A DNA stretch of 64,000 bases from positions 248,001-312,000 of the forward strand of contig QPGO01000079.1 in assembly GCA_008632985.1 (NCBI GenBank), given 5' to 3'. The stretch's first letter is position 1. Every line of letters starts with the position of its first letter. A model generated the notes under the pieces. That model was not told the origin of the DNA, made no database searches, and worked only from the letters and a program-made list of their open reading frames with translations. The position numbers were made by a program, and so were the translations under genes. Shown here one piece after another: positions 5,110-27,090 of this stretch. Origin of the DNA: Psammoneis japonica. Lineage: Eukaryota.

Positions 5110-6560
5110 TGTCACAAAGCTGTCGCCATCCCAACTCTTGTCTATCACCTCTCTCACAAGATCCATAACATGTTGCACCAAACACGGCATTCATCCCGCT
5201 CACCGGCGGCAATGTCTTTCATCTCCCTTCGAGCCGCTCTGGTGCCGCTCTCGGCTCATGTGGTCCAACCCACGCTCCACCCTTTCCCTCTGTCGCATCT
5301 TCCACCAATGCGCTCCCATTCTCCTTCAGTTTGACTCTCCTTCCTTCACTTCATTAACACACGCTGTCAAACACCACAACCTGCATGGTCTTCCACAGAG
5401 CGCTTCACCCACACATCATCATCACAAGACGAACACTCTCCCTCAGATCCTCGCCGATCCCTCCATGCAAGCAACCAGCCCTTCCATCTCTGCTGTCTCC
5501 ACTGACAAGCTTGTGCCTTCACTCCCTTTCCAAGCTCATGCCTCCAGCTGGCTCCCATCGAACTCATTTGCACTTCTTCTCCTTCACAAGCTGTGCCTCC
5601 CAACGATTCCCTTTGATCGGCTCCAATGCGACTGCCCATGTGGCCACACCCGCCCAGACCCTTGCAGAGACCATGCCTTTGAATGCTCCAAAATGCGTTG
5701 AGGCCCGCTGTCAAATCACATTTGCAACACCATTTGCACCATCATCGAAACACTGGCCCCCCTTTGCGGTCTGCGCCTTTCCCGCTAACAAGTCCACCTC
5801 AACCCTGCCGGCCTCTTGGCTGACCACCCCCTCAAACACCCTGCCAATGTTGGCGTTCAACTCACCCCTGGCTCCACACCACCAGGTGCCCCATTCAATC
5901 ACTTCTTGGCCATTGATGTCACTGTGCCGCCAGCTCCCCAGCCTCCTGCACCTGGTTTGCCCATCCCCGAAAACCCCCATTGAACAAGGCTCACCTCAGC
6001 CGCACACAGGACAAGCTTCTCTCAGTTGTTCTGTGCCATCTGCTCACAGCTCCGACATCATCAATGCCATCAATCAAGCCAGACTTTTCCTCCTCCCTTT
6101 CACATTTGACCACCTTGGTGGAATCTGTCTTCTTCTTCGGCACCTCTGCCACAACATCCTCCTCCATCCCACCCCTTCCTCCCAAACCACCCTGGACAAG
6201 CCCATCCTCCCTTTCCAACTCTCAAGCATCCTTCTCCACTTTCACCAACTCACTGCTTGCACCTTTCAACCTCCTTGCCCACTCCAATGTGGCCTGGAAA
6301 CAACTTTCACCGGACTGCTTTGGCTCCTCTTGTCACACCGTGACACCTCAACTCTGGGCCTCTCAAATCCTCAGCCTCAACTTCAGCTTTGCTCTCTCCA
6401 ACCATCTCTCCACATGCCAAGCTCTTCTTCTTTGCCATCCCACTGTTGCCAACAACTCTCCTCTTGACCGTCTGTCCACACTTTGGGTTCACCTTTTTCT
6501 CTCCATCCCCCCAAGCGTGCTCCGCGCAACCCTCCCACCACATGTTTCTCCAGATCAACC
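5110..6560 (+). mobile_element. 3' remnant of a CRE-like non-LTR retrotransposon (zinc knuckle plus restriction-like endonuclease), degenerate
   Basis: Across frames: CDCPCGHTRPDPCRDHAFEC (CxCG..DxxGDHxxxC-type knuckle), HPANVGV (RPAD-like), FLAIDVTV and LLPFTFDHLGGI, in the usual RLE order. TpA-depleted. Confidence 0.65.
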
Positions 6561-8496
6561 CTTTCCAACACCACAAACTTTCCAATTGTCAAAAGAAAGA
6601 GACATTGAAGTGTCTCAAGCACACTCGAGGGAAGAAGGTTTGGGGGGTCGAATTCTGTCTCAAACCAACTTGTCCAAAGATGTCATCAGATTTCCTCTGT
6701 GTCACAAATTGGAAGAGGCGTTGGATTTTTTTAACTGTGATGTCCACTGTCCATGGACACACAAAGGTGTTTTGAGCAAGGAGAAGAATTGCAGTGGTGG
6801 TCTGTCTGTGTGACAGTTTCCACATGCATTTTGTGCTGTCATCCATCCCCACCACCTCCAGCCTGATCCCAGTCACGTGTGTGCACAACTCCTCAAAACA
6901 ACGCCCGCTCCTGTGAGAATCAGAGTGGCACTTTGGACTGTTTTCAATCCTTTCAACAATGCCAATGCCATCTGCCAGTCTTTGCTGTCATGCAGAAGCA
7001 AGTTGCTTGTGACCAGCTGCAAGACAAAAACCAGGGCGCCCTTGTGTTGGTGCCATGGACCAATGCTTGCTTTGCTCTCTGCCACAATCCAGTCATGCTG
7101 TGCTTTTGTTTCATTGTCTTGCTCTGTTTTTTGATGTGGTTGTTGTCATCATTCATGCAGAGAGGCATCAGGTTCTGGTGTCAGCCCTGAGGAGGAGGAG
7201 CATCTGACAGCTTCTCCTGCCCACATCTGGCCTGCTCTGGCACAACCGGGCTTCTTCACATCAGCACAGCGGTGCTGCAGCGTGCTTGACACTCCAGTTC
7301 AGACAAAAACAAGCACCCCAAAACTCATGCCACCAATGACATTGATGGTGGCATGCGCATCGTCTGCACTGTCTGTTGATGGCAAGTGACCAATGAGTTG
7401 AGTTGGTTGCAGGTGATCATCCAACGACCAATGATGCACTTTTGCCACAGATGTTTTCACTCATCACAGGATGCATGGTTCCACAACATCTTAAATTTTG
7501 TTTCTTTTTGCCTTCTGATCTCCAAAGGAGGTCTGAGATGACTTGACCTGATTGACAATTGGGTTGCTGTTGTCAGGCCCACACTTTGGGACCCAATCAG
7601 ATGACAACAGTCAAGTCCATTTTTTGCAATGATGGAACCTCCACTGCAGAAGATGGGCAAATGCTCCAAACACTTTTCTTCTCTGAGTTGGCCCACATGA
7701 TGGGTTTCTGTGAGGTCAAGACCAGCCAGCATGCAAAGACTGTTGTTGCTTGTGCAGGATTGGCAGCACTTCTGAAGTCCCATCAAAGCACTGCATCATG
7801 CCTTTTGGTCACTCCCACCATTTCCTGTTGCACAGTCTGCAAACAGAAACATGTCCTTTCTGGTTCGTTGGGTGGCACTGGGGACACACAGAGACAAGCC
7901 TCTTTGTGATGAGCAACATCCCTGTGTGCAGATTGTGGTTTGACCTGCACAGCAGTCATGCACAAATCTGTTGGTCTGTGCCACAGGTTGCCACAATGCC
8001 TCTCTGGGTGTTTGAAGCAAAAGGTCTTCTTTCTTCCACCGGGTGTTCCTGCCACCAAGCAACCATTTTGGTGGTGTGCCCCCAGCTGGGAACTTGCCTT
8101 TGAACAACTCCTGTGCTTTTGGCTTCATGCTCAAATAAAGAGTGTCAAGTGAGAACCTGATCAGTCTGTGTGGCATGATGAGCTTGACAAAAAGAGGCAG
8201 AAAAAATCCAAAAAGGGCAGCAAGAGAGCAAACCTTGAGCAAGCAACTGCCAGCAGGCTCAAAAGAGTTGGGAAGGGAGAGTTTTGAAATGAGCGGGAGA
8301 ATCTCTCAATCTGGGGCCCAAGTTTGGCAATCTTGCTCTGCACAGACCATGTGTGCTGCACAGCACTTGGGTGCCTTCAGTGGCTTGCAACCCATCTTCT
8401 CCAGACAAAAAAAAGCTTGCTTGGTCTGCTGTGACAATGATGAGGGGAGAAGAGGTCGCTGCAGCTCAGAGGATGATTGGCTCAAATCCAATGAAG

Positions 8497-8730
8497 GCAA
8501 GGTCAAAAACAGGCTTGACAATCTGTGCAACTGAGCTGGAAAGCCAGCAGCCAATTTTTGAGGCACAAGCAGCAATTTTTTTTATCTCCAAACACGCAGC
8601 ACTGCCAGCAACTGCTTCTTGCTTGGCAGCAACATGGCAGTTGTGGTGTGACAAGGTCAAAAACAGGTGCACAACAACCTGCACAACTGAGTTGGAAAGC
8701 CAACAAAATCCATTTGTGCACCAGCAGCGC
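8497..8730 (+). repeat. About 155-bp tandem unit, second array at about 14183-14470
   Basis: aaggtcaaaaacagg...caactgagYtggaaagcca recurs at 8499 and 8653. Related units start at about 14187 and 14344. Confidence 0.75.
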
Positions 8731-8749
8731 CAACAGAAAATGTTGAAAC

Positions 8750-10930
8750 AAACCATGACCAACAATGCAGGGAACACTGAGAGTGTGGACAAACCACAGA
8801 AACCAGCTCAATGTGATGCTGGCAAGGAAGGTCTTGAAAAGTTTCCTTTGAATTCTTGGGGTGGAGCAGCAGAGGTTCTTGAGACAGCACAAGAAATGTG
8901 TGCAGCTTTGCAGCAATTCTCAAACAAAAGGACAGCAGTGGCAAGACAATCCTTGGTTTTGACACAGAGACCTTCTGTCTCAACTTCAGAGAAGGAGGTT
9001 TGGATCTAACAGCATTGGCTCAAGTTGCTGCTCAAGATGCAGTGGGTTTGTTTTGTGTCTGCATGCTTTGGTGGCATGCTTTTGCCCAGTTGATCCCTCA
9101 CTGGAACATGGCAATTTTCTCAAGTGCAGTGCAGGAGGCATCAGCTGGGATGTCACAGAGCTGCAAAAAGCCAAAGCATTCACCACAGGGGTTCACAAAG
9201 ATCACTGGCATCATGAGGTGGTGGTGGCACCTCAATGTCAAGACAGGAGGTTTGTGTGGTCTTGTCAGTTTCTTGCTGCATGGCTGGAAGCAGAGAACAA
9301 CAGAAAAATGGCTTGCACAAATCCTCCCAGCAATGTCGCCACCAAGTGAAGCAGACCAGAAGACAAGCTCAACAAAACATTGTCAAGAAAGACGTTTGTT
9401 GTCTTCTCCTGCTGTTTTTTGGAATGGGTGTGTTGAGGTTCTTGAAATGGCAAGGGTGACAAAGAAGGCCATGGATGAAATCATGAACAAAAAAGTGCAA
9501 GATTGCTGGAAGAAGACAACCCTTGGATTTGACACAGAGGTGGTCATTGCAAAAGAGGGGTGGCATCCACTGAGACACTGGCTCAGATTGTGGCTGAAGA
9601 CAAAGTGTGCCTTTGTTCAGGCTGTGGTCTTTCCAAGAAGCCCACTTTGACCCCCTTTGATTCTCTTGCTGGAGCAGCACAGCAATTTTCTCAAGAGTGG
9701 TGCAAACACATGCACAACCATGGCAGAGCTGAAAAAGTTGAAGCATTTGCTCCAAGCAGATTTGTTGCGATTGTTGACATTGCAAGCTGCCAGGTCAACA
9801 CATCAAGCCTCACAGTTTGTGGGGACTTGTTGGCATGTTGTTGAACAGTCAAAAAAGCAAGCAGGACTGGGAGAAAGCACACAGCATGGAACAAAAGGAA
9901 ATTTGACATGCTGCAACCAGCACATGGGTTGGCTGAGACTTGTGCACAAATGCATTTCAAGACCAGAGACAGAGCTGGGCCTGCCACCCACCATTTCTGA
10001 GATCGACTTCAAAGAAGTTGCAAGGAAGAAGGCAGCACAAGGAGGGATGAACAGCACAGACAAAGCAAAGGAAGAGGAGAAGAACAGAAAATGTTCCTCC
10101 CAGAACATCAGCAGCTCTGATGCCAGCACCAGCAAGAGAGCAAGCCAGAAAGGCATGCTTGGTGATGTGATGCTGGCACAAGAAAGCTGTTTGTGGTCTT
10201 TCTTCCATCTGGAATGGAAGAATTGAGGTTCTCAAAGCCACAGAGGCAATGAAGGCAGCTTTGGGAGAAATGCTGAAACAATGAGATTGTCCTGGCAAGA
10301 CAACTGTTGGATTTGACGCTGAGGTGGCTCTTGTGAAAGATGGGCAGCATCCACTGGCACTGGCTCAGATTGCAACTGGAACATTTGTCTCACATCTGCA
10401 AGCTTCTCAAGTCTCCTTTGATGTGCCATTGATTCCCTTGCTGAAGGCACAGGCATGTGCCAGGATTTGGCAGAGCCACAAGAAGTCAAGGCATGTGCCC
10501 CTTGGGAGCACTTGTGGATGTCACCTCCTGACATCACAACCTTTCAACTCAATGTCAAGGCACAAAGTTCGTGGGGTCTTGTTGGTGCACATTGTCAAAC
10601 AGACAGCTGTCTGACAGCTTTCAAAGAAGCAAATGGGGCTGAGAGAGAAAACACAAAGCCTGGAACCAGGAGAAATTTGCTGCACCAGGGCAGCCAATGC
10701 CTGGTGGCATGGTGGGGCAGGAAGTGTGCACTTGAAGAAGGCAAGCAACAAACTTGTGGCACAGACTGATGTTGAAAGCTGCCTGCCAGAGAGGGAAAAA
10801 GCTGGAGAAAAGAACACAGAAAAACAAAGAGAACAGGGAGGCACATGCAAACAAGACCATCACAACATTGACAGCACCACCTGCCCAGGGCAAAGACCAG
10901 CCAAAGCCAGGGCACTGCACTGAGGCAAAA
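8750..10930 (+). pseudogene. Heavily mutated copy of the 3'-5' exonuclease gene with remnants of three tandem exonuclease domains
   Basis: KTILGFDTET, KTTLGFDTEV and a third GFDAE remnant, plus linker ELGLPPTISEIDFKEVARKK matching ELGLPPVPDIDFKEVARRK of 24367-25539. Confidence 0.88.
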
Positions 10931-11169
10931 TGGAATGAGGCAGAGAGTTGACATGAATGGTGCTTCAGGAGCCACTGTGTTGGGGCATCTGGTGTGAGCG
11001 GGAAATGCAAGAGACCCAGAAGTGGATCCATTGAAGAGAGGATGCTTCAGATCCTGATGTGGTGGATCAGACAACACTTTAGAAATGAGTGCACATTTGT
11101 CACCAATCTCACCAACCTTCTTTTTAACTCACTCTTTGGAGCGAATCATCTGGTTTGCATGAAATGCAC

Positions 11170-13600
11170 TGTGGTGTCAGCAGGTGCCCCCATCACATTG
11201 TAAGATCGAAGTTTTTTGAGAGCTTCCAGGCAAACTGCAGCCACCACAGAGACCAGGACAGGTGTGATTAGCAGCACAGGAAGCCTTGGAGGACTCTCTT
11301 TTGGCACCATTGACCTGTCGGTTCAACGTTCACTCCAAAGAGTTGCAGGTGCTGCACTGGCGCACATGTGGCGCCAACCTCCTTTTTTGTCATCTGAGTC
11401 AGGAAACCTGCCCTTGGGAGCAGCAGAGGAGGAGGAGGAAGAATGAGTGCCAAAGGCCAAGGATGTGACCAAGGCAGGGGCAGCAGAGGACAGAAGTCTT
11501 GCTGTGACAAGAACAAGAAGACTGACCCCAAAAAAAGCTTTGAGCCAGAAATGAAGAATTTTCATCCGTCATCAATGAACAGCAACTCATGCAATGCAAT
11601 GTTTGAAGAAGTCAAGGAAAAGATTGTCAGCCAAGCACAGAAGGAGCATGATCAAGGCATGCATCTGGCAAGGTCCCCAGAAGACATGAAATGCATCATG
11701 TTCACCAGTGAGAAACCAGCACGAGCAATGGCATTGACGGCAGTGCCAGAAAGCTCAAAGGACAACCACAAGACCAAGAAAGATGAGAGGGCCAGAGAAG
11801 AAAGGCAACTGGAACATGAGCACAAGATCAAGTTGCATGACTGCAATGAGAAAGTCAAGAAGAAGCTCTTGAAGAAAACAAAAACACTGCCTTTGCAGCA
11901 ATCCCAGATGACTGCTGTGCCAAGATGATGAAGCAAAGAGTGCCGGCTGATTCCAGTTGTGCAGAGGGGCTCAGAGATGACCAGATCAACCTGCTGAGGC
12001 TGATCCAGCCACTCTTGTGTTTGACTCCATGAGGGGTTGACACCCGTTCCACATTCTCACCAAAAGTCCCTGAAGCACATTGTGGAAGTGAAGCAGTCAG
12101 AGGACAAGTTGCTGAATGACTGCCCGTTTGGATGCAAGAATCAATGGGATGCTGCAAGCAAAGGTCTCAGCAGTGAGATGTCAGATGGGCTCATCAAGAA
12201 TTCCAAGGAGTGCAAGGACTGCACTGAACCAGCAGATCAGAAAGTGCTGAAGGGCACTGCATTCAAGACATGGACAACACACCTGTCCATGGAAAACAAC
12301 AAGGACTGCTGCCACAAGAGTCTCAAGAAAAGCCTTGTGAGAGACTGCAGCCTGGGGAGGGATTTGCATCCAAAGACCCTCAAGAAGGCAATGAGTGTGT
12401 TGCTGAACCATCCAACAAGAGATGATTTTTCATGCAAGAGGCAGAGCAAGAAGAGTTGCAAGCATCAGAATGACAAGAAAGAGGACAAGGGTGATGACAA
12501 GCCCAAGAGCCCACAAGACCAGAGTCATGCACAGAGTGGCAAAGTGACGTGCCACTGTTGTCACAGAGCAAACCACAAGTCCCCAGATTGCAGATGCGAG
12601 GATGAGATCCCACAGAAGGACTGGCTCAAGAGCACCAGCAGGAAACTGGACACCAGGGGACAGAGTCATGCACAGAAAAACAAAGACACTTCATCAGCAA
12701 GCAGCAACAATGCCGGCGTTGGCACCTGCAGGTCAAGTTGATCTGTGAGCTCCACCAGCAGAAGAAATGTCACATGACATGGGTGTTCCAGTTAGATTGG
12801 CAAGCCAAACAAGGGCTGGAGATGAGTTTGAGCCAAGCTGATGCCAGCATTGAGTCAGATGAGATCATCCTTGACAATGATCTACCCCAGCAAGGCAGCA
12901 AGCCAGAGATTGGTGCACAATGTGTGACCAGCAAGGACCAAGATTGATCTTTCCACCAATGCAGGAGTGCACACTTCAGATGAAGACTGCAATGTGCCAG
13001 GATGGGGTGATGTGAAGCTTGGGCACAGAACATGACAACCAATGTCCTGAGCATCAAGGATGTGAAGAGCAAGTGCTGTGTCATGTGCAACAACCAAGTG
13101 GCGGATGAGTTCTGTCTGCTGGATGAGAAGACAGGCAAGCAGGTTGTGGTGTTCAAAGTTGACAACATCAGACTGTGTGCATTTTCACCAAGCCAGTGGT
13201 TCTTTGACCACTTGAAAGAACTCCAAGAAGATGAGTCACATGTGAGCATGCCATTGAAGGACAAGAAGGTTTTGAAGAAGACCAACATGTGAAGCACAAG
13301 AGTGCATCGGGGGAATTGTTGTTCCAACAGTGAAACAGAACATGAAAGGTCACACCAAACAAGAAGTGGCAAATGCTGAGGAAGCACTGAGACTGTGCTG
13401 CAAGGCTGAAATGCCAGTGTCAGGGATTTCAAGCCGTTCCTGCAATCCAATCAGGTGAAGAACCTGTCCATCCCACCTGAGGATGTGGACAGAATGGCGG
13501 CCATGTGGGGTCCACCAACGGATGTGCTCAAAGGCAAGACCAAGCATGCACACCATTTCCGTCCATGAGAGGAGCCATGTTGCCGATCAAGGCTAAAGTC
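11170..13600 (+). mobile_element. Truncated, degenerate Ty1/Copia (diatom CoDi-like) retrotransposon: gag, protease and start of the integrase region
   Basis: CHCCHRANHKSPDC knuckle (Cx2Cx4Hx4C), LGRDLHPKT, IILDN protease motif, NVLSIKDV, TVKQNMKGHTKQEVANA and WGPPTDVLKGKT. TGGTGTCAG at 11172 could be a mutated TGGTATCAG tRNA-Met primer site. Confidence 0.8.
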
Positions 13601-14182
13601 CAAGAAACATGACCATGTTTACAAAGCCTTGGACATGATTCTCCAACAGCACAACATGGCCCCATTTGAGATTCAAGGACATGCTGGCAGAAGTTGCAAA
13701 TGGCATGAACATCTGGAGCTTGTCTCTGCAAATGCCAAGGACCATGTTCCCAAAGTTGAGCAAAGCATTCAGACCACAAAGCAGTGAACCCATGCCACTG
13801 CACTCACTCTTGCACAAGTGTCGCACCCCCTCTGCCCCACTGTTGAAAATGTTGAGTCCAAGACTTGATGTGCTTGACATTGTGGAGGTGGGCAAAGATG
13901 AAAATGACTCCTGGGGCTCTCATCTAGAGCTCGTGTTCAGCCCTGAGTTTGGCAGCTGATTGTGTGTTGCCTCAACAAAGGTGTTGGATGCCTTCAATCC
14001 AGTCACTCCAAAAAAAGCAGTGCTCTTCTTGGCAGAGAAAAAATCAGCTGTGTCGGCATCCAGAAAATTTCTTCAGAGCAGTTGTCCCTGCCTGCCATCA
14101 GCGACATTGAAGTGCAGACACCAATGGAGCAAAGCCACAAGTTCCAGATGAAGCCACCACCACTGGCTTGAACCCAACCAAG

Positions 14183-14470
14183 AAAAGTCAAAGACAGGCT
14201 CAACAACTGGCACAGCTGAGTTGGAAAGTGATGACAGCAATCCATTTGTGGCAAATGGTGATTTTTTCTCTCCAGACACATGGCACTGTGCCAGCAAGTG
14301 CTTCTTGCTTGGCAGCGATGCAACAAACATGGTGCAACAAGAGGTCAAAGACAGGCTCAACAACCTGTGCAACTGAGCTGGAAAGCCAACATTCCATTTG
14401 TGGCAAGCATCAATTTTTCTCTGCCAGCATGCTGCGGTGCACCAGCAAGTGCTCCTTGCTTGGCGCCACC
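14183..14470 (+). repeat. Second array of the about 155-bp unit
   Basis: gtcaaagacaggctcaacaac at about 14187 and 14344; cttcttgcttggcagc shared with the 8.5-kb array. Confidence 0.75.
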
Positions 14471-15793
14471 AGCGGCGCAACAAATGTGGTGTGCACACTG
14501 TCAAATCCCTGTGTGCAGTCCCGCTCACATCCAATTGACCACCCATGTTTTCAAACTCATTCTTGCAAAAGATGCCTTCCTTCACAAGGGTGCACAATGA
14601 GTTCTTTGTCACAGGTCTGCAACCAAGTGAACATTTTCCAACACAGGACAGGTGTGTGTTGCTCTGTGCAATGTGCCACAATGCATGAATGATGCTCTGC
14701 TTGTGGTGCGCATTGCATCTGAGTGTCCATGCCAATTCACACATGCAGCATGTGCCACACACACTGCACCACCCCTGTGCAAGGGCTGCTGTGGGATGCA
14801 GGTGGGTGTGGTGTGTGATGACATCATCACATGCATTGAGTTGCAAATGTTCACATTTGCACTGACAATTGCATGTTGTCAAGCAACAGCTCCCATCCCA
14901 CAGCACCCCTGAATCTCTGACCACCAAACACTGACCCCAGCACTTGACCATTTTTCAGCCATTCTCACACCACCCAAACAACACATGTCACATCAACTCC
15001 ACCATGATGACATCTCCTTCTTTGTCACCAACAACTTGCCAGGACTCCATTCCTGCTGATGTTGTTGACATTGACACTGCTGCAAGAGGCAAGGATGTCG
15101 CTCCGGTTGTTGCACACCTTGTGCACCCCAAACAAGAATGTGCAAACCCGCCCACGCTGTCACTGCACCCATTGTGGAGGATGATGCCATTGCTCCGGTT
15201 GTCGTAACCCAGCCACAGACGCATTGCAATCCAGAAGATGTCAACATTTTTCTCCTGATGCAACACCTGGCACACAGTCTCAAGGCTGCAATTGGTCCAC
15301 CCTGGTCACAGCGTTGCCTGAACAACTTTCTTCTGAGCGTGTGCATCTGTTGTTGTGGCACTGCATTGGCTTGCCCTGTTTTCTGAGATGTTGCACACTG
15401 TGGCACAATGACGCAGTTTGCGGTGATCCAGTGTGGGGCAATGCCAACCACTGGAGCCACTTGGAGTGCTGGCAAAACAACAACTGCTTTCTCATTGTGC
15501 TCACTTTCTACAGTCGTCAAAAGCATTTCTGACAATTTCCCAAAACAAGGTGACCATCTTGCTTTTGTTCCCCTTGCGTTCACAGAGGCCCAAGCACTTG
15601 GTGCTTGCTGCCCAACCATCCTGTTCTGCTGGATCTTCAAAGCAGTGGGGAAACCCAGGACATGCTTGCAGAACTGTCTTGACAGGTGACTGGAAATTGT
15701 TTGTTGATCAAAAAGTGCTCGGCCCTTTCTCATCCGAGGAAGTAAACTGGGTGGTTGTCAGGCAGAAAATGTCTGGCGACAAGGCATGTCAGC

Positions 15794-16524
15794 TGACAGG
15801 ATTTGAACAGGATTTGGGTGCGTGCGAAATGTCGCGTGCTGTTTAGTTCACCGCGCACAGTTTTGTGCGCTCTTTAGTTCCGCGCGCACGCGTGCGATGC
15901 AGTTTGCTTTCAAGCCACACGGCTCACAAGAATGACAACAGCAGCCCGATCACACTGACTTGCACGTCTTTTGGCTCCTGTGACGGTCTCTGAGCGGAGA
16001 CTCATCTGCCATTTAGACAGCAGTGAGGAGTTGTTGTTTGAATTCTTGCCATTTGCCTTCAATTTCTGTCAGACATTGCGTGCGTGAGGCGATTGCCTCT
16101 GGTTGCCTTGAGTTCCACTTCATCAAAGGCTCCCGCAACCCTGCTGACATCCTCAGCAAGCATTGGGGTTGCTCCCAAATCTGGGACCTTCTCCGTCCCC
16201 TCATGTTTTGGAACTTCGTTCCATCCGAAGTCGAACCTGTTTCTGTGACTCCTCAAGCAAACTGGGGAGTGACAGGATTTGAACAGGATTTGGGTGCGCG
16301 CAAAAATGCACAGTTTTGTGTGCTCTTTAGTTCCGCGCACACGCGCGCGATGCAGTTTGCTTTTGAGCCACACGGCTCACAAGAATGACAACAGCAGCCC
16401 GATTGTGCCGACTTGCATGTCTTTCGGCTCCTGTGACGGTCTCTGAGTGGAGACTCATCTGCTGTTTAGACAGCAGCAAGGAGTTGTTGTTTGAATTCTT
16501 GCCGTTTGCCTTCAATTTCTGTCA
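15794..16524 (+). mobile_element. Miniature, internally deleted Copia element: two LTRs around an RNase H tail
   Basis: LTR1 15794-16071 and LTR2 16270-16524, both TGACAG...CTGTCA. 5-bp target-site duplication TCAGC (15789-15793, 16525-16529). Purine tract GGGGAG before LTR2. Internal part encodes HCVREAIASG...NPADILSKHWGCSQIWDLLRPLMFW. Confidence 0.93.
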
Positions 16525-17853
16525 TCAGCAAGAGAGATGTGGGCGGCAGTGAGGAGCAAGCTCAAGAGAGTGCACAACACATCAAATGCACCCATGCCAC
16601 TTGCTTCTCACTGGATTGACCATCATGCACAGTTGGTTTTGAGTTGATGAGAGCCAAAGCCCCTTGTCAGGATCAAAGATTTGTTTGCTTGCAAGTTGGA
16701 GCAATTCCCTGGTTGCACTGCTGGCATCAATGACAGGCTTGCCCAAGAGCTCAATCCGCCACAGCCACAGAAACATCCCCACCTGTCAAAACAGGTGCAG
16801 CAGTGTCAGCATTGGGTGCACCAATCCTGTGAAAGGCTGGCAATGTGCCAGCATTCATGACAGCATCTGTGGCAGGCTCTGCCACATCAGAAAAACAGCG
16901 TCAGTTTGCAGCACATCATTTTGGCTGTTTTTGGCATGAGAGAGGCAAAGCAACAACATTGTTGCCTCTTGCATCAGGTGCACTGGGAACAGCATCAGGT
17001 GTGGTGCTTGCGGGACATGGAGCCATGGCATTGTCATTCACAACAGAAGCTGTGGCAGGCACTGGAGTGTGAGAAACAGAGTGTCCGTGAATGAGCTCTA
17101 ATTTTGGAAGCAGCACCAGGTGCACGATGGCCACAGAAATGACATCACCTGATGCGCCAGTGTCATCATTGTCAGCATCAATGGGTGCCGCATTGTGGTG
17201 AGGTGTTGATGATGAATCACTTGACATCATCATGGTGGACTTCTGTTGGCGCCTTTTTTTGTGTGTTGCACGAGGAGAGAGGGAAAAATGGTCAAGTGCT
17301 GGCTGTCAGTGTTTGGTGGCCAGAGAATTGGGGGAGAGTGTGGATCAGGATTTTCCCTGATGCTCATGAGCATTTGTGTGCAAACAATGCAAAATTTCGT
17401 GAAATGACAGCATGCCACTCTTCCCTTGCACGCACATGTTTGACGGGTGGACAGACAAATTGCTGTGGCCGCCTTCAGAATCCGTTTTTCTTTGTCACGG
17501 CACAACCATGGGCCGCTCCGACAACACTGTCTTGTGAACGCCGCTGTTGAACAATTGCTCGAATCTACCCGACACTACTCACGCTCGTGACAACAAACAA
17601 GGGGAGCGTTTGTTGCATCAAGCAACATCCGGTTTTGGCCGCTTGCAATGGGCTCAGACTCCTCTTGCATTGACTGCGGTTTTTCTGTCTCGTGCCGCTC
17701 GCTCGCGGTCCAACCCATCACCTTCACTGGACGACTCATGTCTCCCTTTCCAATGCAAGCAGCTTGTCACCACTGGCGCTTGTGTTTGGCCTCTCCATCC
17801 TCTGCCTGCTGCAGTGGCATGCTTCCTGACACCTCGTGCTGCTGACAGCAACT

Positions 17854-20814
17854 GTGACAATCGAGAACGTGTGTGTTGATGTTCTGCACCGGCCAGAGTT
17901 TGACCTTGTTGATGACAAGCCGATGAACAATCAAGCAGAGCTGAGAGGAGAAAGTGTTGCAGTTGACATGTCCACACCACCGTGCAAGATTCTCATTGAT
18001 CCCACAGCTGCCAGGCAAGTCCATTCATCGCCCAAGATGCCTGTTGCCCAAGCTGCTAAACTGTTGGTGCGGCGACATGAGAGACTCTACAAAGCCAATG
18101 GTGTTGAAGCTGTGTGCACATTTGATGGCATGCACAATCCACTCAAATGGCAAACGGATGCCAAGCGCAAGGCCAGGAAAAAGCCAATTGAGGACAGAAT
18201 GTCATTTCTTCTTAAACAGAACAAACCTGAACAAGACCGCCTCGAGGTGCTGAACAAAAGGAAGAGTGTCGTTTGTCCTCAAGGAGACATCATGCTTCTG
18301 ATCAAGAAGGTGTTTGACCAAGAAGGAATGCCTCATGTTCAAGCTGCAGTTGAAGCTGAAGCACAGTGTGTGGAGATGCAAAATTCTGGGATCGTTGGAT
18401 GCATGGAATCCAAGGATGGTGACGTGCATGGGTGCAATTGCAAGAAATGGATCACAAACTTGAACCCCTTCAATGGCGACTGCTGCATCTTGGCAGCTTC
18501 TCAAATTGATGCTCGTGAGTGTGCGGGTGGTGGGCGCTGGAAGGATCACAAGCATGCTGCTCCTGCTTTTCAGAGCTGCGACTGCAATGTGAAGCCACAC
18601 AGTTTGCCGTTTGCCAAAACGATGGATGGATGCATCGCTGCCACAGATGAGAAAAAGCACCTCGAGGACATTGAGACCAATTTTAAGTGGCCGCCAAAAG
18701 CTCATGGTGCTGATGACAGAGGGCAGCCTGCAAAAGGATTCGCGTTGGAAGCCGGGCACACCATGAACATGTTCCTTGGTCACCCAGTCTTTTGGCTGTT
18801 GCCAAAGGAAGGTTTGGATAAAATTGATTTGTCAAAACTGCCAAGCAAGGATGCGCATGGCAGCATTGAGCTTGTGCCATCATGTGATTGCCCCCAATTT
18901 TCTGAGGATGGTGGCGAGGGATGGGGAAGATGCCTGGGATGCGACAAGTCACCGGCGGCTGTGCTCGGAGACATTCTACACAGCAATGGCATGGACAATT
19001 CTGACTGCTGTCCCTTGCTCTCAATGGAAATGTGGGCAAGGGGAGGAAAGCCACTTGAGCGAGAGGCAATTCCATGTCCTCAACACGACAACCGACACAT
19101 GATCAGCCACCTGGCAGAGCTCAACGTTGATCCAGACAAAGGCGGTGTTCCTCTCGGATTCCTTGATGTTGACCACATGAGAGCTTTTTTGCAGGAGCGG
19201 CGAAGCCTGCCACCATCTCATGCCGGGACCATCCCAAGTGCTCATCTTGAGGAAGCAGCGCGGGCCACTCCAGACAAAATGAAATGACCAAACGGTTTGC
19301 AGCTGGTGCCACGATCCTTGTCAGAGTCATGAAAAGATTCGGGAACTTTTTCTGTTGAGCAGGTGATGCTGCCTCCAGCAGGGCAACAGCGGCAGTGGGA
19401 TCATGAAAATGTCATGCAAAGAGTGCGAGGAGCAATGAAAATTGATGACAAATCCATCAACAACATGACACATCGGAAGAAGTGAGGTGGCGCAAGGTGC
19501 TGTGCTTGCCGACGCATTGATGGTGGCAACTGCAATGTCAACACATTCTCTGTGACAGAGGGAAGGCACAGGGAGACAAGACGCAGCGTTGTTCTCTTTC
19601 GCATGCTTGTGACCCCATCCCAGAAGTCGGACCCATGTTGGGCACATGTCGCATTTGACAAGGAGACAGGAGACTGTGTTCCATGTCCTGGATCGAGGTG
19701 TGAGTGCCCCGTGGTGGATGGGTGTTCCCACACCCTTGCTTTTCTTGGAGGTCCGATTTGCTTGGCGCAAACGAATGTCGAATGGACCGTGGACACTCTT
19801 GCTGAAGCAATGCTGGAGTCCATCAAGCCACACCAGTCATGTCCCATCCCTTTTGAGGCTGGAGCTTTTGAGTCTAGCAAAGTAGAGAAGGAGGTAAAAG
19901 CTGAGGGAAGAGCCACTCTGGCATTCCATGAGACCCATGGTTCCAGAGAAAGGGACAACGAAGACGAAAATGTTGAGACGGCGGCACAAAATGAAGAAGA
20001 TGATGATGGAACTCCCACAACACAAATGTGCGCCAACACAGAGGTCATGGTTGCAAAGGCTAAAAAGAGGGCCGAACTGACAGAGACTGAGCGAGATTTT
20101 GCTCATTGGGTTGCATTGGACAAGATGCGAGCCATGAACAAGGAAAAGCTTGAAGGCAAGGGCGGGCCAAATGAGTCTCTCGACTCAAAGCATGAACAAT
20201 TAGAGATGCTTGAGTGCCTGCATCAAGAAGTGAAGGTGGGAAACCTGCCACGGATGCTCCTCTCTCACTGCGCAGAAATTTCAAAGCCTTGCCATGATTG
20301 TTTGTTGAAGCAGCTGCCGCACGTGAAGGACCCATCCACAGTCCGCCAAAAACACCGTCTGCCAAAAATTGAAGAAGACGATCAAGCATGCGGCGACAAG
20401 AATTTCAACAATGCATCTTGCTTGCATCCCAATGGCAATGAGATGATCTGCCCAAAACACCTTGTTGGGAAGCACTGTGACATTGCTGAGGTGCGTGAGG
20501 ATGAAGGAATCAAATCGCTTCGATGGTCAAGTGAAGGTGTCTTCACGTGAGCAATTGATGATGCCCATGTTCAAGATGTCACAACCAGCGGTCATTTCCC
20601 TTGTCTGCATCATGCTGTCAACTGCTCTCAAGGGCGCACCAATCTCTGTGCCCCATGCCACGCCCCTGATCCAAACCTGCATCCAGCTGACAAATCTCAC
20701 TTTGTCGACTTTGAAGAAAAGAAATTGGCAGCTCGAAAGAGGAAAGAAAAAGCTCGGGATAACAGAGCAAAGAAGAAGGAGGCAGATTTACAAAATGTCA
20801 CAAAGGAAAATTAG
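17854..20814 (+). pseudogene. Transposon ORF: XPG/EXO1-family nuclease + SWIM finger + putative C-terminal half of a DDE transposase
   Basis: One reading frame broken only by a few TGA codons. Motifs: LRGESVAVDMS, TFDGMHNPLK, AAVEAEAQC, SKDGD, SCDC (GCDY-like), RCECPVVDGCSH, then RLPKI..GDKNF..PNGN..P..L.G..EV..D..I..LRWSSEGVF. Ends in TAG. Probable start ATG now reads GTG (ctATG->ctGTG). Confidence 0.78.
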
Positions 20815-20884
20815 TCCAGCTGACTGCCTCTCGTGTTTTGTGTTGCATGTGTGTTTGCTTCTTCTATTGTCAACACTGACATGG

Positions 20885-22560
20885 TTAGTGTGGCTCGTTG
20901 GCAAACAAAATTTGGTTTGCATCAACTGTTCCCCACAATTCTGTCAATCTGTTCTCAGGGCATCGTCCAAAGCAGAGCCCTGTGTGCTCAAACACTGAAC
21001 CAGTGGGAGCCAACCATGTCATTGTAAGCCCGTCACTCGAATCCGTCTTCTCATTGTACAGCAACCGATCAAGAGCAGCACAGACTCGAACTGTGTCTGT
21101 CACAAACATTTTGCCATCCACGACCGCCGCGATTTTTTCATGGCCTTTCTCCCCAAATGTTTTTGGCACCGCAGTTGTGATGTAAGAGGTGCATTGAGGT
21201 GGATTGCTTGTGGTTGAGTGTGGAACGTTGTCACTTGATGCAACGTCTTCTGGCAGGCAATCGTCCATGAAGTCCAAATCGAGCATGGACATGTAAAGCC
21301 CTGCTTTTCCAAGGCAAGGCATCCACATCTGTGCTGTCCGTGGAAACCAGCTGTTGCCTTCACGATGCCATGTCGACCCCAAAGTTGCCACCCGACAATC
21401 CCGGTGCACCGTCATTGTGCATGTCAGCACCTCTTTGACCGCCGTGAATTGCTCCTTTCCCTTGCCGTGTCTTTCCTCTACATCAGGAAACCAAACCTTT
21501 GTGATGCAGCAGATGGCTTCCTCAAATGTCCCCAATCCCCAAAGATGCTTTGCCATTTTGTCATGATCCTCGTGCCACTTGCCGCTCATCAGATTCTCCC
21601 TGCTAAGTCCACCCATCGCTTCAATCTCATCCTCCCGCTCCAAGCACACTTTCAACTTTTGAGCCTTGTCTGCTGGCTCTGATGACAGTTTGTCAGCTTT
21701 TTTCAATGCAATTTGAAGCAACTCATTCACATGCTCAAGCTCTGCTCGCAAGCTGACATTCTCCTTTCCTGCTCTATCTGGATCAAATGCGGGGCGTGCC
21801 TCTGTGCTGCTGCAACTTTTCGGACCATTGGCGGTGGACGAGGCAAGTCTCTTGCATTGTCATCCTCATCAAGACATGCTCCAATGGGGTCCAATGATGT
21901 GCGGGCTGACTTTGCATCTCGTGGATAATCTTTCTTGGTGCAGTTCAGTGCCGGGCAGCATGACATTTTTCCATTGCTCCGATCTCTTGCGTCACTTTTG
22001 TGAAAGCACAACAATTCTCCCGTCTCACAGTCCACATTTTCCAAGGGGCCTTTGTTGTCCTCTTTTAAAATGGCAGGATGGAAATGATTGAATCCAATGC
22101 ATTCACAATTGCCAGTGGGTTCCGGTGGCACACAAGAGTTCCCAACAAGATGCCGACACGCCACGACTCTCATGTCATTGTCACTGACACTGCCACCTCC
22201 ACATGGCCTTCTTTTGCTGGCACATGGAAGGTGGCAGCAACCACACCTTTTTTGTCACCAGCATCAATGAAGTCCTTTGTGCTTTGCTTGCACTCTTCCT
22301 TGTCACGGCAGATGCATGGGCAGAGCCGCACACCTTTGCAATGGTTTCTCTGGGGATCTCGCTTGCGTTTGGGAGGCGACGTCGCGCGGACGATTCTTCC
22401 GTCATTGCTGCAGCAGGCAGAGGAATGCCAAAGCTTGTAGATGTGCCAGTGGTGACGGGCTCCTGTCGACGGCAACGGAGACACACGTCTTCGAGTGGGT
22501 GTGATGGGCCGAGCTGTGACGGGAGCTGAAGAGAAGAAAAATGGGTTGATGCCGGTGCTG
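20885..22560 (-). pseudogene. Transposon ORF: THAP-like finger + coiled coil/HTH + N-terminal half of a DDE_Tnp_4-type transposase (frameshifted)
   Basis: CPCICRDKEEC..FHVP..HFHP, then AVVDGKMFVTDTVR..LYNEKT..LTMTWLAPTGSVFEHTGLCFGRCPENRLTELWG. Ends in TAA soon after, before the second catalytic Asp. Start position uncertain. Confidence 0.72.
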
Positions 22561-22889
22561 CCTGTGCCCGTGGAAAGGGCACACAACAAAGGATGTGACT
22601 TGCCGGATGTAAGGCTCTTACAGCAGTTTCTGTTGTTAATAGCGCCAGTGGTGTCAGGGAGAGTAAGCTTCTTGTTGAACAGTGGCAATGTCAAAAGAGG
22701 AGGTCGTCAGAGGCAATTCAGCGTCCGGGTCACGTCTGTGCATGCCGGCACATGCCATCGCCGGCCGGCCAGGCGCCAGGACTACTGTACGTACGTCAAC
22801 CGCATGACCGCGAGTGCGTCGGGCGGGCGTCGATCGACAGGGTTTTCACGGAAAAATTCAAGTCAGAAGTATAAAAAACATACCAGAGC

Positions 22890-23058
22890 CTACGCCACTA
22901 GTGGCGTAGAATGGTTCAGGGTGTACACAAATTTTGTACCACAGTGGCGTACGTGATTTTGATATAAGATTCTACATGCGCCTAGTGGCGTAGACCCAGT
23001 ACAAAAGCAATAAATTTTTGAAGTTTTGTGGCGTACAAAGTCAGTATGTTGTGGCGTA
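22890..23058. repeat. Subterminal GTGGCGTA repeat array with a perfect 20-bp palindrome
   Basis: CTACGCCACTAGTGGCGTAG at 22890-22909; GTGGCGTA at 22901, 22944, 22985, 23028 and 23051. Confidence 0.9.
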
Positions 23059-24366
23059 GATTCGACATCAACAAGACTTCGCGCAACACTCGCAACAACC
23101 AAGACAACAGAAAACCGCTCGCAAAATCTCGCTCCCACTTTACACGTTGCAGCTGATGTGGTGTTGTTCATTCGTCTCACTCGTTTTCATCGTGGAACCT
23201 CCTGATGACACAGGGTGTCTTTCAGGTGTGTGCATCGGTCTGATTGCCCCCCCCTCTTTGGGCAAGAATGGGGTGTGTGGTTTGCTTCTTGAAGACACCA
23301 GACCAGAGCCACAAGGAGCTTGCAGTGGAGAGCTGGCAAGCAAAGCACTGGGCTGCGCCACAAGGCACTGGCTGATGGGACAGCATTGGGCAAGCACAAC
23401 TGCAAGCATTTTCCTGAGGGCACTTTGCACCACATGTGACAAAGCCAGAAACATGGACTGAGAAACACAGACAGAGCCAGGTTTTGCTCAGCTGGCCACC
23501 CAGAATTCAAGCAGGGGTGCAGCCGGAATGAAGAAGGCTGCAGGTCAATTTGAGGTCCCAGTGGGAACTTGCTTTGCATGTTTGTTAATAGCCTGCTGCA
23601 GAAGCTGTGGCTGCACTGGAAACCCAAAGGTGGCGGTGCGTGATGGGGTGGATCTTGCAAATTCTCTCAAGATTTTGTGATGCATGGGGCCAAAATTTGG
23701 GTGCAGCATCCACAGATGCTTTGGGAGAGATGCTGTGAATTCGTCAAGGCAGGCACTTCTGACAGCATGGGTGGGGAAGGCCAGTGCTTGTTGCCAGGGA
23801 TCTTTGTGAAGATCTTTTAAAGAGGATGACACTGCGTTCTCTCACTTGGAAACTTCAGAGAATTGTTTGGACACAGCGTGGGGCCAAACCCGCCAAAGTG
23901 TGCACTGAATTTTGGAGAACAAAGAAGACACAGATCAGCGGCAGTGGCCACCAAGCTGGCAGGGCAAGGCTTGGAAAACAAGCTGCCCAAAAAGCCATGA
24001 TGGGCTGGCAGCAAAGCACTCCTCACAAAAGATGCCGCTGTCAAGCTGTGCCACAGACTGCACAACTCCACAGTTCTCCAGCACGCTGTGGGAGCTTTGC
24101 TGCCAAGCATGTAAAACCGCAGCACCTCAAGTCACAGACAAGCTGCTTTGCAGGCAGAAGCCCAGCCAAGGGCCGCAAGTTGACAGCCCCACAGCGTCTT
24201 CTCTTTTTCTCCTTTTTCCTTCTTTTCCTCTCTCTCTTCTCCTTTTCTCCTTTTCAGTTTATTCTTCTGGGCCGCCTCCGGCGGCCACCTCTTTCATTCT
24301 TCCCACATGCCGAAATCTCGTTGAAGGTCGACAGAAGAATTAGAAGACAGAAAATCGGAACAAACC

Positions 24367-25539
24367 ATGGCAGACAACACAGGGGATGAGCCGCAGAAAC
24401 CAGCGCAACGTGACATTAGCAAGGAAGATCTTGCAAAGCTCCCTTTGATTTCTTGGAATGGAGCGGTGGAGGTTCTCGAGACGGCGCAAGAAATGCATGC
24501 AGCTGTGCGGAGAATTCTCAAACAAAAAGACAGCAACAGCAAGACAATCCTCGGCTTTGACACAGAGACCCGCCCAAACTTTAGAAAAGGAGGTTGGAAT
24601 CCGACGGCGTTGGTTCAGGTTGCTACTCATGACACGGTGTACTTGTTCCGTATTTGTAAGCTTTGGCGGCATACTTTCACGCCGTTGATCCCTCTGCTAG
24701 AGCACAGTGATTTTCTCAAGTGCGGTGTGGGCATCAGCCAGGACGTCACGGAGCTACAAAAAGTCGAATCATTCACGCCACGGGGATTCATGGAGATTGT
24801 TGATTTTACGAGGTGGCAGCTCAACATCAAGCCGGGAGGTTTACGTAGTCTCGTCGGTTTCTTGCTGCATGGCCGGCTCTCCAAAGCGGCTCAAATGAGC
24901 AATTGGGCCAAGGACAAGCTCGAACCAAAAGAGATTCAGTATGCAGCAACTGATGCGTGGGTTGGACGAGAATTGTACGTAAAAGCAACTCAAGAGCAGG
25001 CGGAACTTGGTTTGCCGCCCGTTCCTGATATTGATTTCAAAGAAGTTGCACGGAGAAAAGCAGAGAGAGCGAAGAAGAAAGCAGAGGAGGCAAAGGAAGC
25101 GGAGAAAAACAGAAATATTGCTTCCATGAAAGTTGCCAACAAGAATGTCACTACAGTAGGTACCGAGAATAGGCCAGAAAGACCGGCTCAACGAGACCTA
25201 AGCAATATTCATGGTCTTCCATCCATTTCAAGGGCGAAGAGGAAAGCAGAGGATGCAAACGAAGCGAAGAACAATAGAAGAATTGCTTCTCCGAACATTG
25301 CCAGCAAGAATGCCACTACCAAGAGCGGGACAGAAAGACCGTCTCAACGAAATGTCAGCAAGAAAGCTATTCGTCATCTTCCATCCATTCCAAGGGAGAA
25401 CTTTGCCAGCAAGGATGCCACTGCCATGAGCGGGCCAGAAAGACCTTCTCAACGAAACGTTAGCAAGAAAGATATTCGTGGTGTTCGATCCATTTCAAGG
25501 TATAAGAACAAAGCAGAGAATGCAAAGGATGCGAAATAA
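24367..25539 (+). CDS. DEDDy 3'-5' exonuclease (WRN-exo/RNase D-like) with a repetitive basic tail
   Basis: ILGFDTETRP (Exo I), KCGVGISQD (Exo II), QMSNW...QYAATDAW (Exo III); 390-aa uninterrupted ORF. Confidence 0.9.
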   Translation: MADNTGDEPQKPAQRDISKEDLAKLPLISWNGAVEVLETAQEMHAAVRRILKQKDSNSKTILGFDTETRPNFRKGGWNPTALVQVATHDTVYLFRICKLWRHTFTPLIPLLEHSDFLKCGVGISQDVTELQKVESFTPRGFMEIVDFTRWQLNIKPGGLRSLVGFLLHGRLSKAAQMSNWAKDKLEPKEIQYAATDAWVGRELYVKATQEQAELGLPPVPDIDFKEVARRKAERAKKKAEEAKEAEKNRNIASMKVANKNVTTVGTENRPERPAQRDLSNIHGLPSISRAKRKAEDANEAKNNRRIASPNIASKNATTKSGTERPSQRNVSKKAIRHLPSIPRENFASKDATAMSGPERPSQRNVSKKDIRGVRSISRYKNKAENAKDAK

Positions 25540-25559
25540 ACAACAGAGAAATTGCTTCC

Positions 25560-26237
25560 ACAAACGTTGCCAGCAATGTCACTACCAAGAGCAGACCAGA
25601 AAGACCGGCTTCGACGAGTCATTGGCAAGAAAGGTATTAGCGATCTTCCTTCGATTTCTTGGAATGGACGTGTATAGTTCTTGAAACCGCAAGGCCAATG
25701 AAGGAGGCTGTGGATAAAATCCTGAAAGACAAAGACAACCGGAACAAGACAATCGTTGGATTTGTCACTGAGACGGCTATCGTGAAAGAGGGGCGGCATC
25801 CACCGGCGCTAGTTCAGATTGCATCTGAAGATACAGTGTACCTATTTCGCATCTGCAAGCTTCCCAAGTCTACTTTGACGCCATTGATCCCCTTGCTAGA
25901 GAACAGCGATATTCTCAAATGAGGTATACGCCAGAACGTGGCGGAGCTACAAAAAATCGAAGCCTATACACCTCGGGAATTCGTGCATATTACGGACATT
26001 ACCTCCTGTCAACTCAACATCAAGCCACAAAGCTTGCGGGGTCTTGTTGGCGTGTTGTTGAACAGACAGCTGTCTGATGGGTTTCAACGGAACAAATGGG
26101 ATTGGGAGAAAACACAAAGCCTGGAACCAGGGGAAGTTCGCCACACGGCAACAAAGGCCTGGGCAGGGCTGGAAGTGCACATCAAGGCAAGCGACGAATT
26201 GTCGCACAGGTTGATGTCGAGGAGGACTCACCAGTGA
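25560..26237 (+). pseudogene. Second, disrupted exonuclease domain downstream of the intact ORF
   Basis: KTIVGFVTET (catalytic D->V), PALVQIA, LIPLLENSDILK*, SLRGLVG, RHTATKAW; stops and frameshifts. Confidence 0.85.
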
Positions 26238-27090
26238 GTGAAAAGCCGGCGGAGAATCGCGGATGAAAGAACACGGAAAACAAAGAGAACAGGGGAGACA
26301 CAAACAAGACTGTCACAAAATCGACAGTGCTGCTTGCCCAGGGCAAGGATCAAAGTCAGAATGCTATGTGGAGGAAAAATGAAAAGGGGCGGAGAGGTGA
26401 CAAGAATGATGCCACAGGATCCAACGGGTCGCCAGCAAGAAAGGCGGCCAAGGTTGCTGACGCACACCTGCAAAGCGTGTGCTGATTTACTGCATTGTGC
26501 AAAAACGACGAGGTGCGACTTGGAGGGTTGCATGTTGGCACATTGCACTACATAATGGCCGACAGGCGTCTCTCTATTGCCATGGATCGAAAGCCTGTTG
26601 AGAAGACTCCGCCAGCTGTGTCACATTGGATTGCTGCGTCGTGAGACAGTGTAGATTGCACAGACAATTTCATAGTTCGACATGATGCATGCTAAGCATT
26701 TCATGTTCCACTCGATACAGTATGGTGCCCTTCTTGAAATGAAAGCGTGTTCCATTCTTGTCTTTACCAGGCCCCTTGCAGCGATGCCGCTTCATGGTGC
26801 TTCTCCTTAGCAGGCAAAGTTGAAGTACATAGAGAGGTTTGGTTTGTGGGAGCTCGAGCCGATGAAGTAGATGTGGTATAGATTCTACTTACGATCATTT
26901 GCGTAGCATCGTACTGATGACCGCCATGGCGAAGCACAAAAAAACCCCGCGAAAGCTGGAACGAACGCAGGCGCAGCCGTGCGACCCAAGAGCAAAGCAG
27001 CGGTGTGCGGAACGATATTCTAAAACATTTCTGTTGCTGCAGAGTGGAGATATACCTTTGCAACTCTCGTTTCATAAGTTGTTTTTGTCA

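Follow-up and report, generated by a model that had tools for sequence, protein, structure and literature searches.

A decayed Harbinger/ISL2EU-like transposon whose catalytic domain appears to be divided between two convergent genes

The catalytic domains of DDE (Asp-Asp-Glu) transposases and integrases are treated as single chains. PIF/Harbinger elements carry two genes and need both proteins, and Tn7 combines a DDE enzyme (TnsB) with an unrelated second nuclease (TnsA), both strands being cut. PHIS transposons have terminal inverted repeats and make a short AT-rich duplication of their target (TWA or AT; in ISL2EU it is AT, with GG at the element's termini), and Academ elements duplicate 3-4 bp. 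PHIS elements are two-gene transposons, and the role of their second open reading frame (ORF) is called unknown in the portion of Han et al. (2015; PMC4482050) drawn on here. ISL2EU elements, in the extracts of PMC4482050 and PMC9179366, combine a THAP/helix-turn-helix (HTH)/DDE transposase with a YqaJ exonuclease, and have an average length of ~4.8 kb and terminal inverted repeats (TIRs) of up to 259 bp. Academ elements (AcademX) pair a DDE transposase with an XPG nuclease according to the extract of PMC10045372, and their RNase H-like domain is reported in that of PMC5751038 to have no detectable Pfam similarity. Here we describe a locus in a 64,000-nucleotide stretch of Psammoneis japonica DNA (contig QPGO01000079.1, positions 248,001 to 312,000; hereafter the window, whose coordinates are used throughout), where two convergent genes each end in a piece of a DDE domain. 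With a probability of roughly 0.6, we consider the region at 17.7-22.5 kb to be a decayed cut-and-paste transposon of the Harbinger/ISL2EU kind (PHIS, DDE_Tnp_4), with the two convergent genes lying between inverted arms and a catalytic domain assembled from two polypeptides.

The two genes are laid out as follows, where P and L numbers denote related proteins and loci and A numbers denote our alignments.

20885..22385, minus strand: gene A, a pseudogene matched collinearly in three frames by residues 13-511 of the intact L001 protein (tblastn); in order, a Cys-rich N-terminus, an HFHP motif, a coiled coil, an HTH-like region and the N-core of the DDE domain
20927..21187, minus strand: N-core of the DDE domain (beta-1 to alpha-1), found by its own profile in the six-frame window with an expectation value (E) of 4.8e-13
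21116-21118, minus strand: codon of the first Asp (VVDGK), in a D-G-K column invariant in A3 and A6
20885-20887, minus strand: stop TAA of gene A (TTA on the plus strand); two frameshifts lie upstream, near 22252 and 21791
20815..20884: spacer of 70 bp between the convergent stops
17836..20814, plus strand: gene B, a pseudogene collinear with P0176, P0177 and P0179 in A8; in order, an XPG-type nuclease, a SWIM-like zinc finger, an acidic linker, a helical block, the C-half of the DDE domain and a basic tail
17938..18480, plus strand: XPG nuclease domain (XPG_N at 17938-18183, XPG_I at 18325-18480)
19696..19731, plus strand: SWIM-like motif RCECPVVDGCSH (CxCx5CxH)
19954..20010, plus strand: acidic linker (DNEDENVETAAQNEEDDDG), with an acidic stretch at the equivalent place in P0175-P0177 and P0179
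20110..20316, plus strand: helical block (GKGGPNES...HEQLEMLE...LLSH), found by its own profile (E 2.7e-7) and by BLASTP to P0021 and P0017
20353..20670, plus strand: C-half of the DDE domain (beta-4 onward), found by its own profile (E 4.4e-18)
20395-20397 and 20533-20535, plus strand: codons of the second Asp (GDKNF) and of the Glu (LRWSSE), in columns invariant in A4 and A6
20812-20814, plus strand: stop TAG of gene B

The last ORF of gene A (20885-21751, 288 amino acids (aa)) reads ...AAVVDGKMFVTDT...YNEK...APTG...GRCPENRLTELWGTVDANQILFANEPH and then stops; this part (VVDGK...ELWG) represents the beginning of a DDE domain of the RNase H type, and its N-core ends in ...GRCPENRLTELWG. The C-half in gene B reads ...RLPKIEEDDQACGDKNF...LRWSSEGVFT.... 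An earlier reading made from the letters of the window (the sequence-only reading) had placed the first-Asp region on a minus-strand ORF ending at TAA 20885, and the motifs it quoted were all found in place when the sequence was read directly. It had also put the remainder of the domain (GDKNF, LRWSSE) in frame behind an XPG-SWIM ORF that ends at TAG 20814, 70 bp away. Position, frame and gap are as it described, but the frame of gene B (17836-20814) is not open, as TGA codons interrupt it at 19285, 19330, 19483 and 20548. The last of these directly follows LRWSSEGVFT, where the aligned residue is Arg in all three relatives, which fits a change from CGA to TGA; the other three fall in poorly aligned stretches. 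With four in-frame TGA codons and two frameshifts, the window copy cannot function, and no start codon was identified for gene A in this copy.

These frames have to be read against the composition of the region. The dinucleotide TpA occurs 0-6 times per 500 bp over 5001-22500 and 12-29 times per 500 bp in the unaffected parts of the window, in agreement with the local TpA loss supposed earlier. Because the region is nearly without TpA, TAA and TAG are rare in every frame of it. The coding frame is recognised by low TGA density together with homology, openness alone being no marker.

To identify relatives, the 288-aa ORF was searched with phmmer against 1.84 billion representative proteins, and 184 matches at E<=1e-3 were obtained (55 at <=1e-10 and 5 at <=1e-30). 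The plus-strand translation of 19900-20811 aligned by BLASTP to the C-terminal ends of P0021, P0017 and P0014 (E 9e-17, 5e-10 and 2e-13, respectively), and the same three proteins are also among the matches of the minus-strand ORF. In P0014 the domain is contiguous (...VDGK...ATETSLVKLWS...LADRGF...LRYTAETSF). By homology, the two window pieces are halves of one domain. That the likeness of the plus-strand piece to a DDE C-half arose by chance is hardly credible: Pfam detected only XPG in the window pieces and gave no DDE match for either half, which would fit a chance likeness, but the pairwise values run from 9e-17 to 5e-10, and our separate profiles of N-core, helical block and C-half found a single match apiece in the six-frame translation of the 64 kb, the C-half at 4.4e-18. 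The plus-strand segment at about 20350-20600, which the sequence-only reading had singled out for checking, is thus homologous to the missing half.

The family was assigned through the relatives. Four of the six contiguous forms tested reach the Pfam DDE_Tnp_4 cut-off of 24.8 bits (P0022, 32.8; P0034, 32.7; P0058, 28.3; P0089, 25.8), P0014 falls 0.3 bit short (24.5), and the contiguous gene A protein of L005 gave no match. The N-core of P0021 and the C-half of P0176 cover profile positions 1-61 and 56-128, respectively, both below the cut-off. HTH_Tnp_4 exceeds its cut-off of 27 in P0058 only (28.3); it is weak in the gene A protein of L004 (19.0), P0022 (16.0) and P0014 (13.1), and it found no match in the other eight proteins tested, including the gene A protein of L001. 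As a lead only, DDE_Tnp_4 is present in every Atlas neighbour of the L001 protein (score 0.90). The attribution to PIF/Harbinger/ISL2EU (DDE_Tnp_4) that had been guessed from motifs is therefore borne out by way of the relatives, four of the six contiguous forms reaching the cut-off.

The gene A protein of L005, which is contiguous, was modelled with AlphaFold2 (28-row alignment) at a mean confidence (predicted local distance difference test, pLDDT) of 83.8. The model places D70 on beta-1, followed by beta-2, beta-3, alpha-1 (124-137), beta-4 (143-145), D147, and E194 in a helix. In a structure search with this model, Tn5 transposase was the best match (Z 8.2, middling for the tool, with 187 residues aligned), followed by integrases, ISCth4, TnsB and Mos1; of the 34 rows listed at Z >=5, 33 were transposases or integrases and one was the RNase H-type endonuclease domain of UvrC. 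Foldseek returned nothing at E<=0.001 with the same model, its weak rows being transposases and integrases. Since the model puts the two window pieces on either side of it, the predicted break point is the loop between alpha-1 and beta-4. The two Asp and the Glu are presumed to be catalytic from the invariance of their columns, their positions in the model and the description of PHIS transposases in the extract of PMC4482050. A model of the permuted protein P0027 was unusable (pLDDT 49.7).

A pattern scan of metagenome contigs yielded five related loci (L001-L005), with the smaller alignments A2 and A7 used for the related-locus scans. L001 holds an intact gene A of 511 aa, whose residues 13-511 match the window over 22385-20888; over the final 301 residues the alignment is ungapped at 61% identity, and the two proteins end at the same residue (...FATEPY* in L001, ...FANEPH* in the window). 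Because L001 stops at the homologous codon, the gene A stop is original, as had been supposed earlier, and the stop with its short tail is conserved at 61-64% identity. In L004, whose N-core is ~33% identical to that of the window, the two genes are convergent and divided in the same way, and both are open. Its gene A (445 aa) stops shortly after ...LVKLWG, and 89 bp further lies the end of a convergent 707-aa ORF comprising a SWIM-like finger, an acidic stretch, a helical block and VLADRGF...CQLRYTSETHF, preceded by an XPG-like ORF. Fusions of XPG, SWIM, helical block and C-half were further found in P0175 (the L004 protein; 79 member sequences on 22 contigs), P0176, P0177 and P0182, so the search for other elements with the layout, proposed along with the sequence-only reading, was successful. 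The split layout belongs to the lineage and not to the window copy alone, and in diverged relatives each half remains an open ORF that retains its catalytic residues. The intact relatives come from marine samples. Among prokaryote genomes and viral contigs, 83 and 55 pattern matches, respectively, included no confirmed relative.

These loci also bear on the idea that the layout is a misassembly or a one-off inversion of ~0.9 kb in the window copy. In favour of it are the heavy mutation of the copy and the repeat-rich DNA around it, but the same layout at ~33% identity in L004, the identical stop position in L001 and the fusion proteins elsewhere exclude an event confined to this copy, and we give the idea almost no weight. 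A 378-nt contig of run X1 also spans 20598-20975 without a difference and with no joints reported; X1 is the one public DNA run with this DNA and possibly the window's own sample, no RNA run being listed for it, and the contig speaks against an assembler artefact only. The inversion of about 0.9 kb proposed in the sequence-only reading stands in its size (the block 19950-20814, ~0.87 kb) and as the most economical origin of the layout, but not as a one-off, the event being old and family-wide.

Of all blocks compared between the four diverged fusion proteins, the C-half has changed least, with pairwise identities of 53-66% (XPG, 31-43%; SWIM region, 31-42%; middle region, 25-36%; helical block, 23-44%; acidic part, 16-36%). 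Its Asp and Glu columns do not vary among the fusion and long forms. L005 has the N-core and C-half contiguous, and its convergent XPG-SWIM-acidic-helical gene ends without a C-half. In the relatives, the helical block always stands before the C-half or closes gene B, and the tail after the C-half varies. Analysis of 142 proteins with a near-complete N-core revealed that 41 are contiguous, 25 have a long insert at the break, 28 are split-like (>=150 residues before the N-core and an end <=35 residues after it), 3 are permuted, 5 have the helical block followed by the N-core and 1 has the reverse order; 18 short fragments also end at the break, and 21 were unclassified. P0179 (1131 aa) carries XPG, SWIM, an acidic stretch, the helical block, the C-half, a linker and the N-core in one chain, and ends in the same short tail as the gene A proteins; P0027, P0120 and P0123 are fragments of this permuted kind. 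The covalent order of the modules is evidently free, being contiguous, interrupted by a long insert or circularly permuted in other lineages. P0108 (HTH region then C-half, without an N-core) and P0075 (helical block then N-core) could be a reciprocal split of the same domain. In the short fragment L002 (1-1080), a partial N-core (620-838, plus strand) and a partial C-half (442-633, minus strand) point outward from one point; it is a further rearrangement or a chimera, and together with P0108 and P0075 may represent the reciprocal way of splitting the domain.

Because of the conservation of the parts, the free order of the modules and the location of the break in a surface loop that tolerates large inserts, we favour a two-chain enzyme. 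In this scheme, gene A would supply the DNA-binding parts (Cys-rich region, coiled coil and HTH) and the first third of the RNase H-type fold with the first Asp, while gene B would supply the XPG/FEN1-type nuclease, SWIM-like finger, acidic linker and helical block, and then the fold from beta-4 onward, which includes the second Asp and the Glu. The two products of an intact element would associate, and a single DDE active site would be formed by residues of both chains. The transposase would then work only as a heteromer with a second nuclease (XPG) physically attached, much like the pairing of TnsB with TnsA in Tn7. The different layouts may have arisen by inversion of 3' modules across the convergent junction. 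Since the two genes face each other, terminal modules of one that are flipped at this junction would be appended to the 3' end of the other with their reading order kept. A flip of the C-half would turn the L005 layout into that of the window and L004, a flip of the acidic, helical and C-half modules (~0.87 kb in the window) would give the long-insert form, and a flip of the N-core would give the permuted form. We hold it an even bet that the full picture applies, in which one DDE site is built from two chains (the DNA-binding chain contributing the first Asp, and the XPG chain the second Asp and the Glu), the modules were moved repeatedly by inversion, and the split, reciprocal-split, long-insert and permuted versions all work; this would be the first such case, split or permuted, among natural transposases of the RNase H type.

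Several observations weigh against this picture. In L003, a close relative with the conserved gene A end (...ELWGTVDPNQIALN*), no C-half was found on either strand in the 970 nt downstream, so that the partner is not always adjacent or the contig represents a transcript. In the clade to which the window belongs, a C-half in gene B could be demonstrated for the window copy alone, and most relatives lie on short contigs of uncertain nature, DNA or RNA. Some of the 28 split-like proteins are surely truncated models, P0025 and P0041 sitting in contiguous or long clades. Finally, grouping the 18 well-supported split forms as one clade was not rejected (P-value = 0.18, approximately unbiased test).

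The partnerless L003 is also what would be expected if the split elements were crippled or regulatory derivatives, with the N-half acting as a repressor or helper, the C-half a passenger remnant, and mobility supplied in trans by contiguous transposases. Contiguous and long forms are indeed common in the family (41/142 and 25/142), and deletion forms exist: P0046 and P0104, in which XPG is joined directly to the N-core, look like internal-deletion derivatives. However, both genes of L004 are open, the gene A stop and short tail are conserved at the identity given above, and a C-half that is the best-conserved block of four diverged fusions, with invariant Asp and Glu columns, is unexpected for a passenger remnant. 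We consider such derivatives an unlikely explanation, though the one among the alternatives that deserves most attention. The proposal that the halves are rejoined before translation, by trans-splicing of the convergent transcripts or by programmed DNA inversion, so that the working enzyme is contiguous, draws on the apparently simple inversions around the convergent junction by which the layouts differ, and on the other inverted junction in L002. It seems improbable to us, as the best inverted repeat on either side of the C-half block (24 nt at 79%; window, L004 and L005 examined) does not exceed the chance level, the element has no recombinase gene, gene A closes in a conserved tail and stop and not in a splice donor, and five independent proteins have the C-half fused in frame to XPG-SWIM.

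Trees of the N-core (101 columns) are poorly resolved. The window groups with L001, P0002 and P0003 at a Shimodaira-Hasegawa (SH)-like support of 95 in FastTree, a grouping left unstarred in the IQ-TREE quick tree, and the L004 group (seven gene A proteins) lies elsewhere, beside contiguous forms. The best tree implies 9 layout changes (minimum 4). A single origin of the split and several origins are both possible.

For the remainder of gene B, Pfam detected XPG_I above its cut-off (E 1.4e-9, 38.7 bits, cut-off 24.9) and XPG_N below it (E 0.001, 19.9 bits, cut-off 22). The SWIM-like piece of the window has no Pfam SWIM match of its own, and P0176 has one below the cut-off (E 0.017); the 180 aa around the window motif align with the SWIM regions of two relatives, L005 gene B (3.2e-13) and P0179 (7.7e-13). 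The XPG part is closest to P0046 (E 5.3e-33) and the helical block with the C-half is closest to P0027 (E 3.5e-27), both permuted-type proteins, which are thus the nearest kin of the window gene B. A word-indexed search with residues 560-992 of window gene B (TGA as X) gave 0 matches among 4880 candidates, the copy being too decayed for this method. In L004, the XPG ORF shares positions 4115-4146 with the 707-aa ORF, which is read in another frame, and the XPG part and the rest are in one open frame in P0176 and P0177; this suggests a short intron or a frameshift inside gene B of L004.

The ends of the element are marked by two inverted arms:

17714..17814: left inverted-repeat arm, just upstream of gene B, with looser colinear likeness out to ~17541
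22408..22508: right inverted-repeat arm, just upstream of gene A, with looser likeness out to ~22695

The longest inverted pair in 16800-23400 joins 17714-17777 with 22445-22508 (64 nt, 72%), and a perfect pair of 17 nt adjoins it (17798-17814 with 22408-22424). The two-gene unit between the arms measures ~4.8-5.2 kb, and the arms 100-290 bp each. Just outside the right arm, where TpA is normal, the octamer GTGGCGTA is clustered, with six copies inside 170 bp (22891-23058) and a seventh at 4775; these 7 copies in the window compare with 0.73 expected and <=3 in 100 shuffles. The array could represent binding sites or a piece of another element.

Besides the element, several features of the surrounding DNA were recorded. 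TpA is nearly absent (0-6 per 500 bp vs 12-29) in the blocks 1001-2500, 5001-22500, 23001-24500 and 26001-26500, where TG and CA are raised; CpG is also very low in 6001-15000. When the depleted paralogue at 8780-10100 was compared with the normal one at 24380-25700 (56% identity, hence a rough alignment), 20 of 34 TA sites read TG or CA, as did 43 of 61 CG sites, and 22 of 107 CA sites read TG. The pattern looks like that of a repeat-directed, transition-rich mutator removing TpA and CpG, for TpA the opposite of fungal repeat-induced point mutation (RIP). One gene is present in at least four copies, at 1266-1680, 8811-10685 and 24367-26146 (repeat families D4-D14); the copy at 24367-25539 is an open 390-aa ORF, by its motifs a putative 3'-5' exonuclease domain protein, and the copies at 8.8-10.7 kb are TpA-depleted. 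Tandem arrays with periods of 12 nt (~34522-34977), 129 nt (33935-34579) and 63 nt (39009-39701) were detected within 33638-35108 and 39009-39701. In run X1, an extra T follows 22247 in about half the depth, a few bases from the gene A frameshift near 22252, and the contigs over 19923-21699 are of uneven depth (2 to 172) with variant letters mostly A>G and T>C. The same genome probably contains further copies of the element, some perhaps without the frameshift near 22252.

If the two-chain enzyme is real, nature provides an example of an RNase H fold shared between chains, and a flap-type nuclease is physically tied to a transposase, which would bear on the role of the second ORF in Harbinger/ISL2EU-type elements, called unknown in the extract of PMC4482050. 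It would also offer a natural design, in effect a ready-made two-part enzyme, for split and inducible transposases. Surveys that use profiles and require an intact DDE domain will miss or misclassify such elements, neither window half giving a Pfam DDE match. In the literature searched (Repbase Reports being outside its scope), we found no description of a DDE domain that is split between genes or circularly permuted, nor of an XPG nuclease with a Harbinger-type element in this layout; for split, permuted or heteromeric transposases, only 'heteromeric transposase' appeared among the matches listed, nearly all of them Tn7 and its relatives.

Compared with the described systems, Tn7 serves as a working analogy only: there each protein has a complete active site and here one site would be formed from two chains, and the two systems have no sequence relation. 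Academ elements resemble the window element in carrying XPG (XPG_I in the window at the E given above, XPG_N and XPG_I in P0176), but, going by the description of Academ in the extract of PMC5751038, they would differ in that the window family reaches DDE_Tnp_4 and Academ is reported without Pfam similarity. The likeness to PIF/Harbinger lies in the contiguous relatives that reach DDE_Tnp_4 (4/6) and, in P0058 alone, HTH_Tnp_4; the partner is a nuclease and not a Myb/SANT protein. Much is shared with ISL2EU, as far as the cited extracts describe it: both have a DDE transposase with an HTH or HTH-like region and an N-terminal zinc-finger-type DNA-binding part, and a nuclease, without a Myb protein, both are of similar size (~4.8 kb with TIRs <=259 bp, against a ~4.8-5.2 kb unit with arms of 100-290 bp), and the predicted D, D and E of the L005 model are likewise on a strand, at a strand-to-helix transition and in a helix. 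The same extracts also set ISL2EU apart, since its second gene encodes a YqaJ exonuclease and that of the window an XPG/FEN1-type nuclease with a SWIM-like finger (at the Pfam thresholds used, no YqaJ domain was matched in the second gene of the window or its relatives, and XPG_I and XPG_N were found instead), and since its hosts are animals and those of the present family marine protists. A further departure, from ISL2EU as described there and from PHIS elements with their single contiguous DDE domain, is that in the window's lineage the domain is split between two genes, with the N-core at 20927-21187 on the minus strand and the C-half at 20353-20670 on the plus strand, and likewise in L004.

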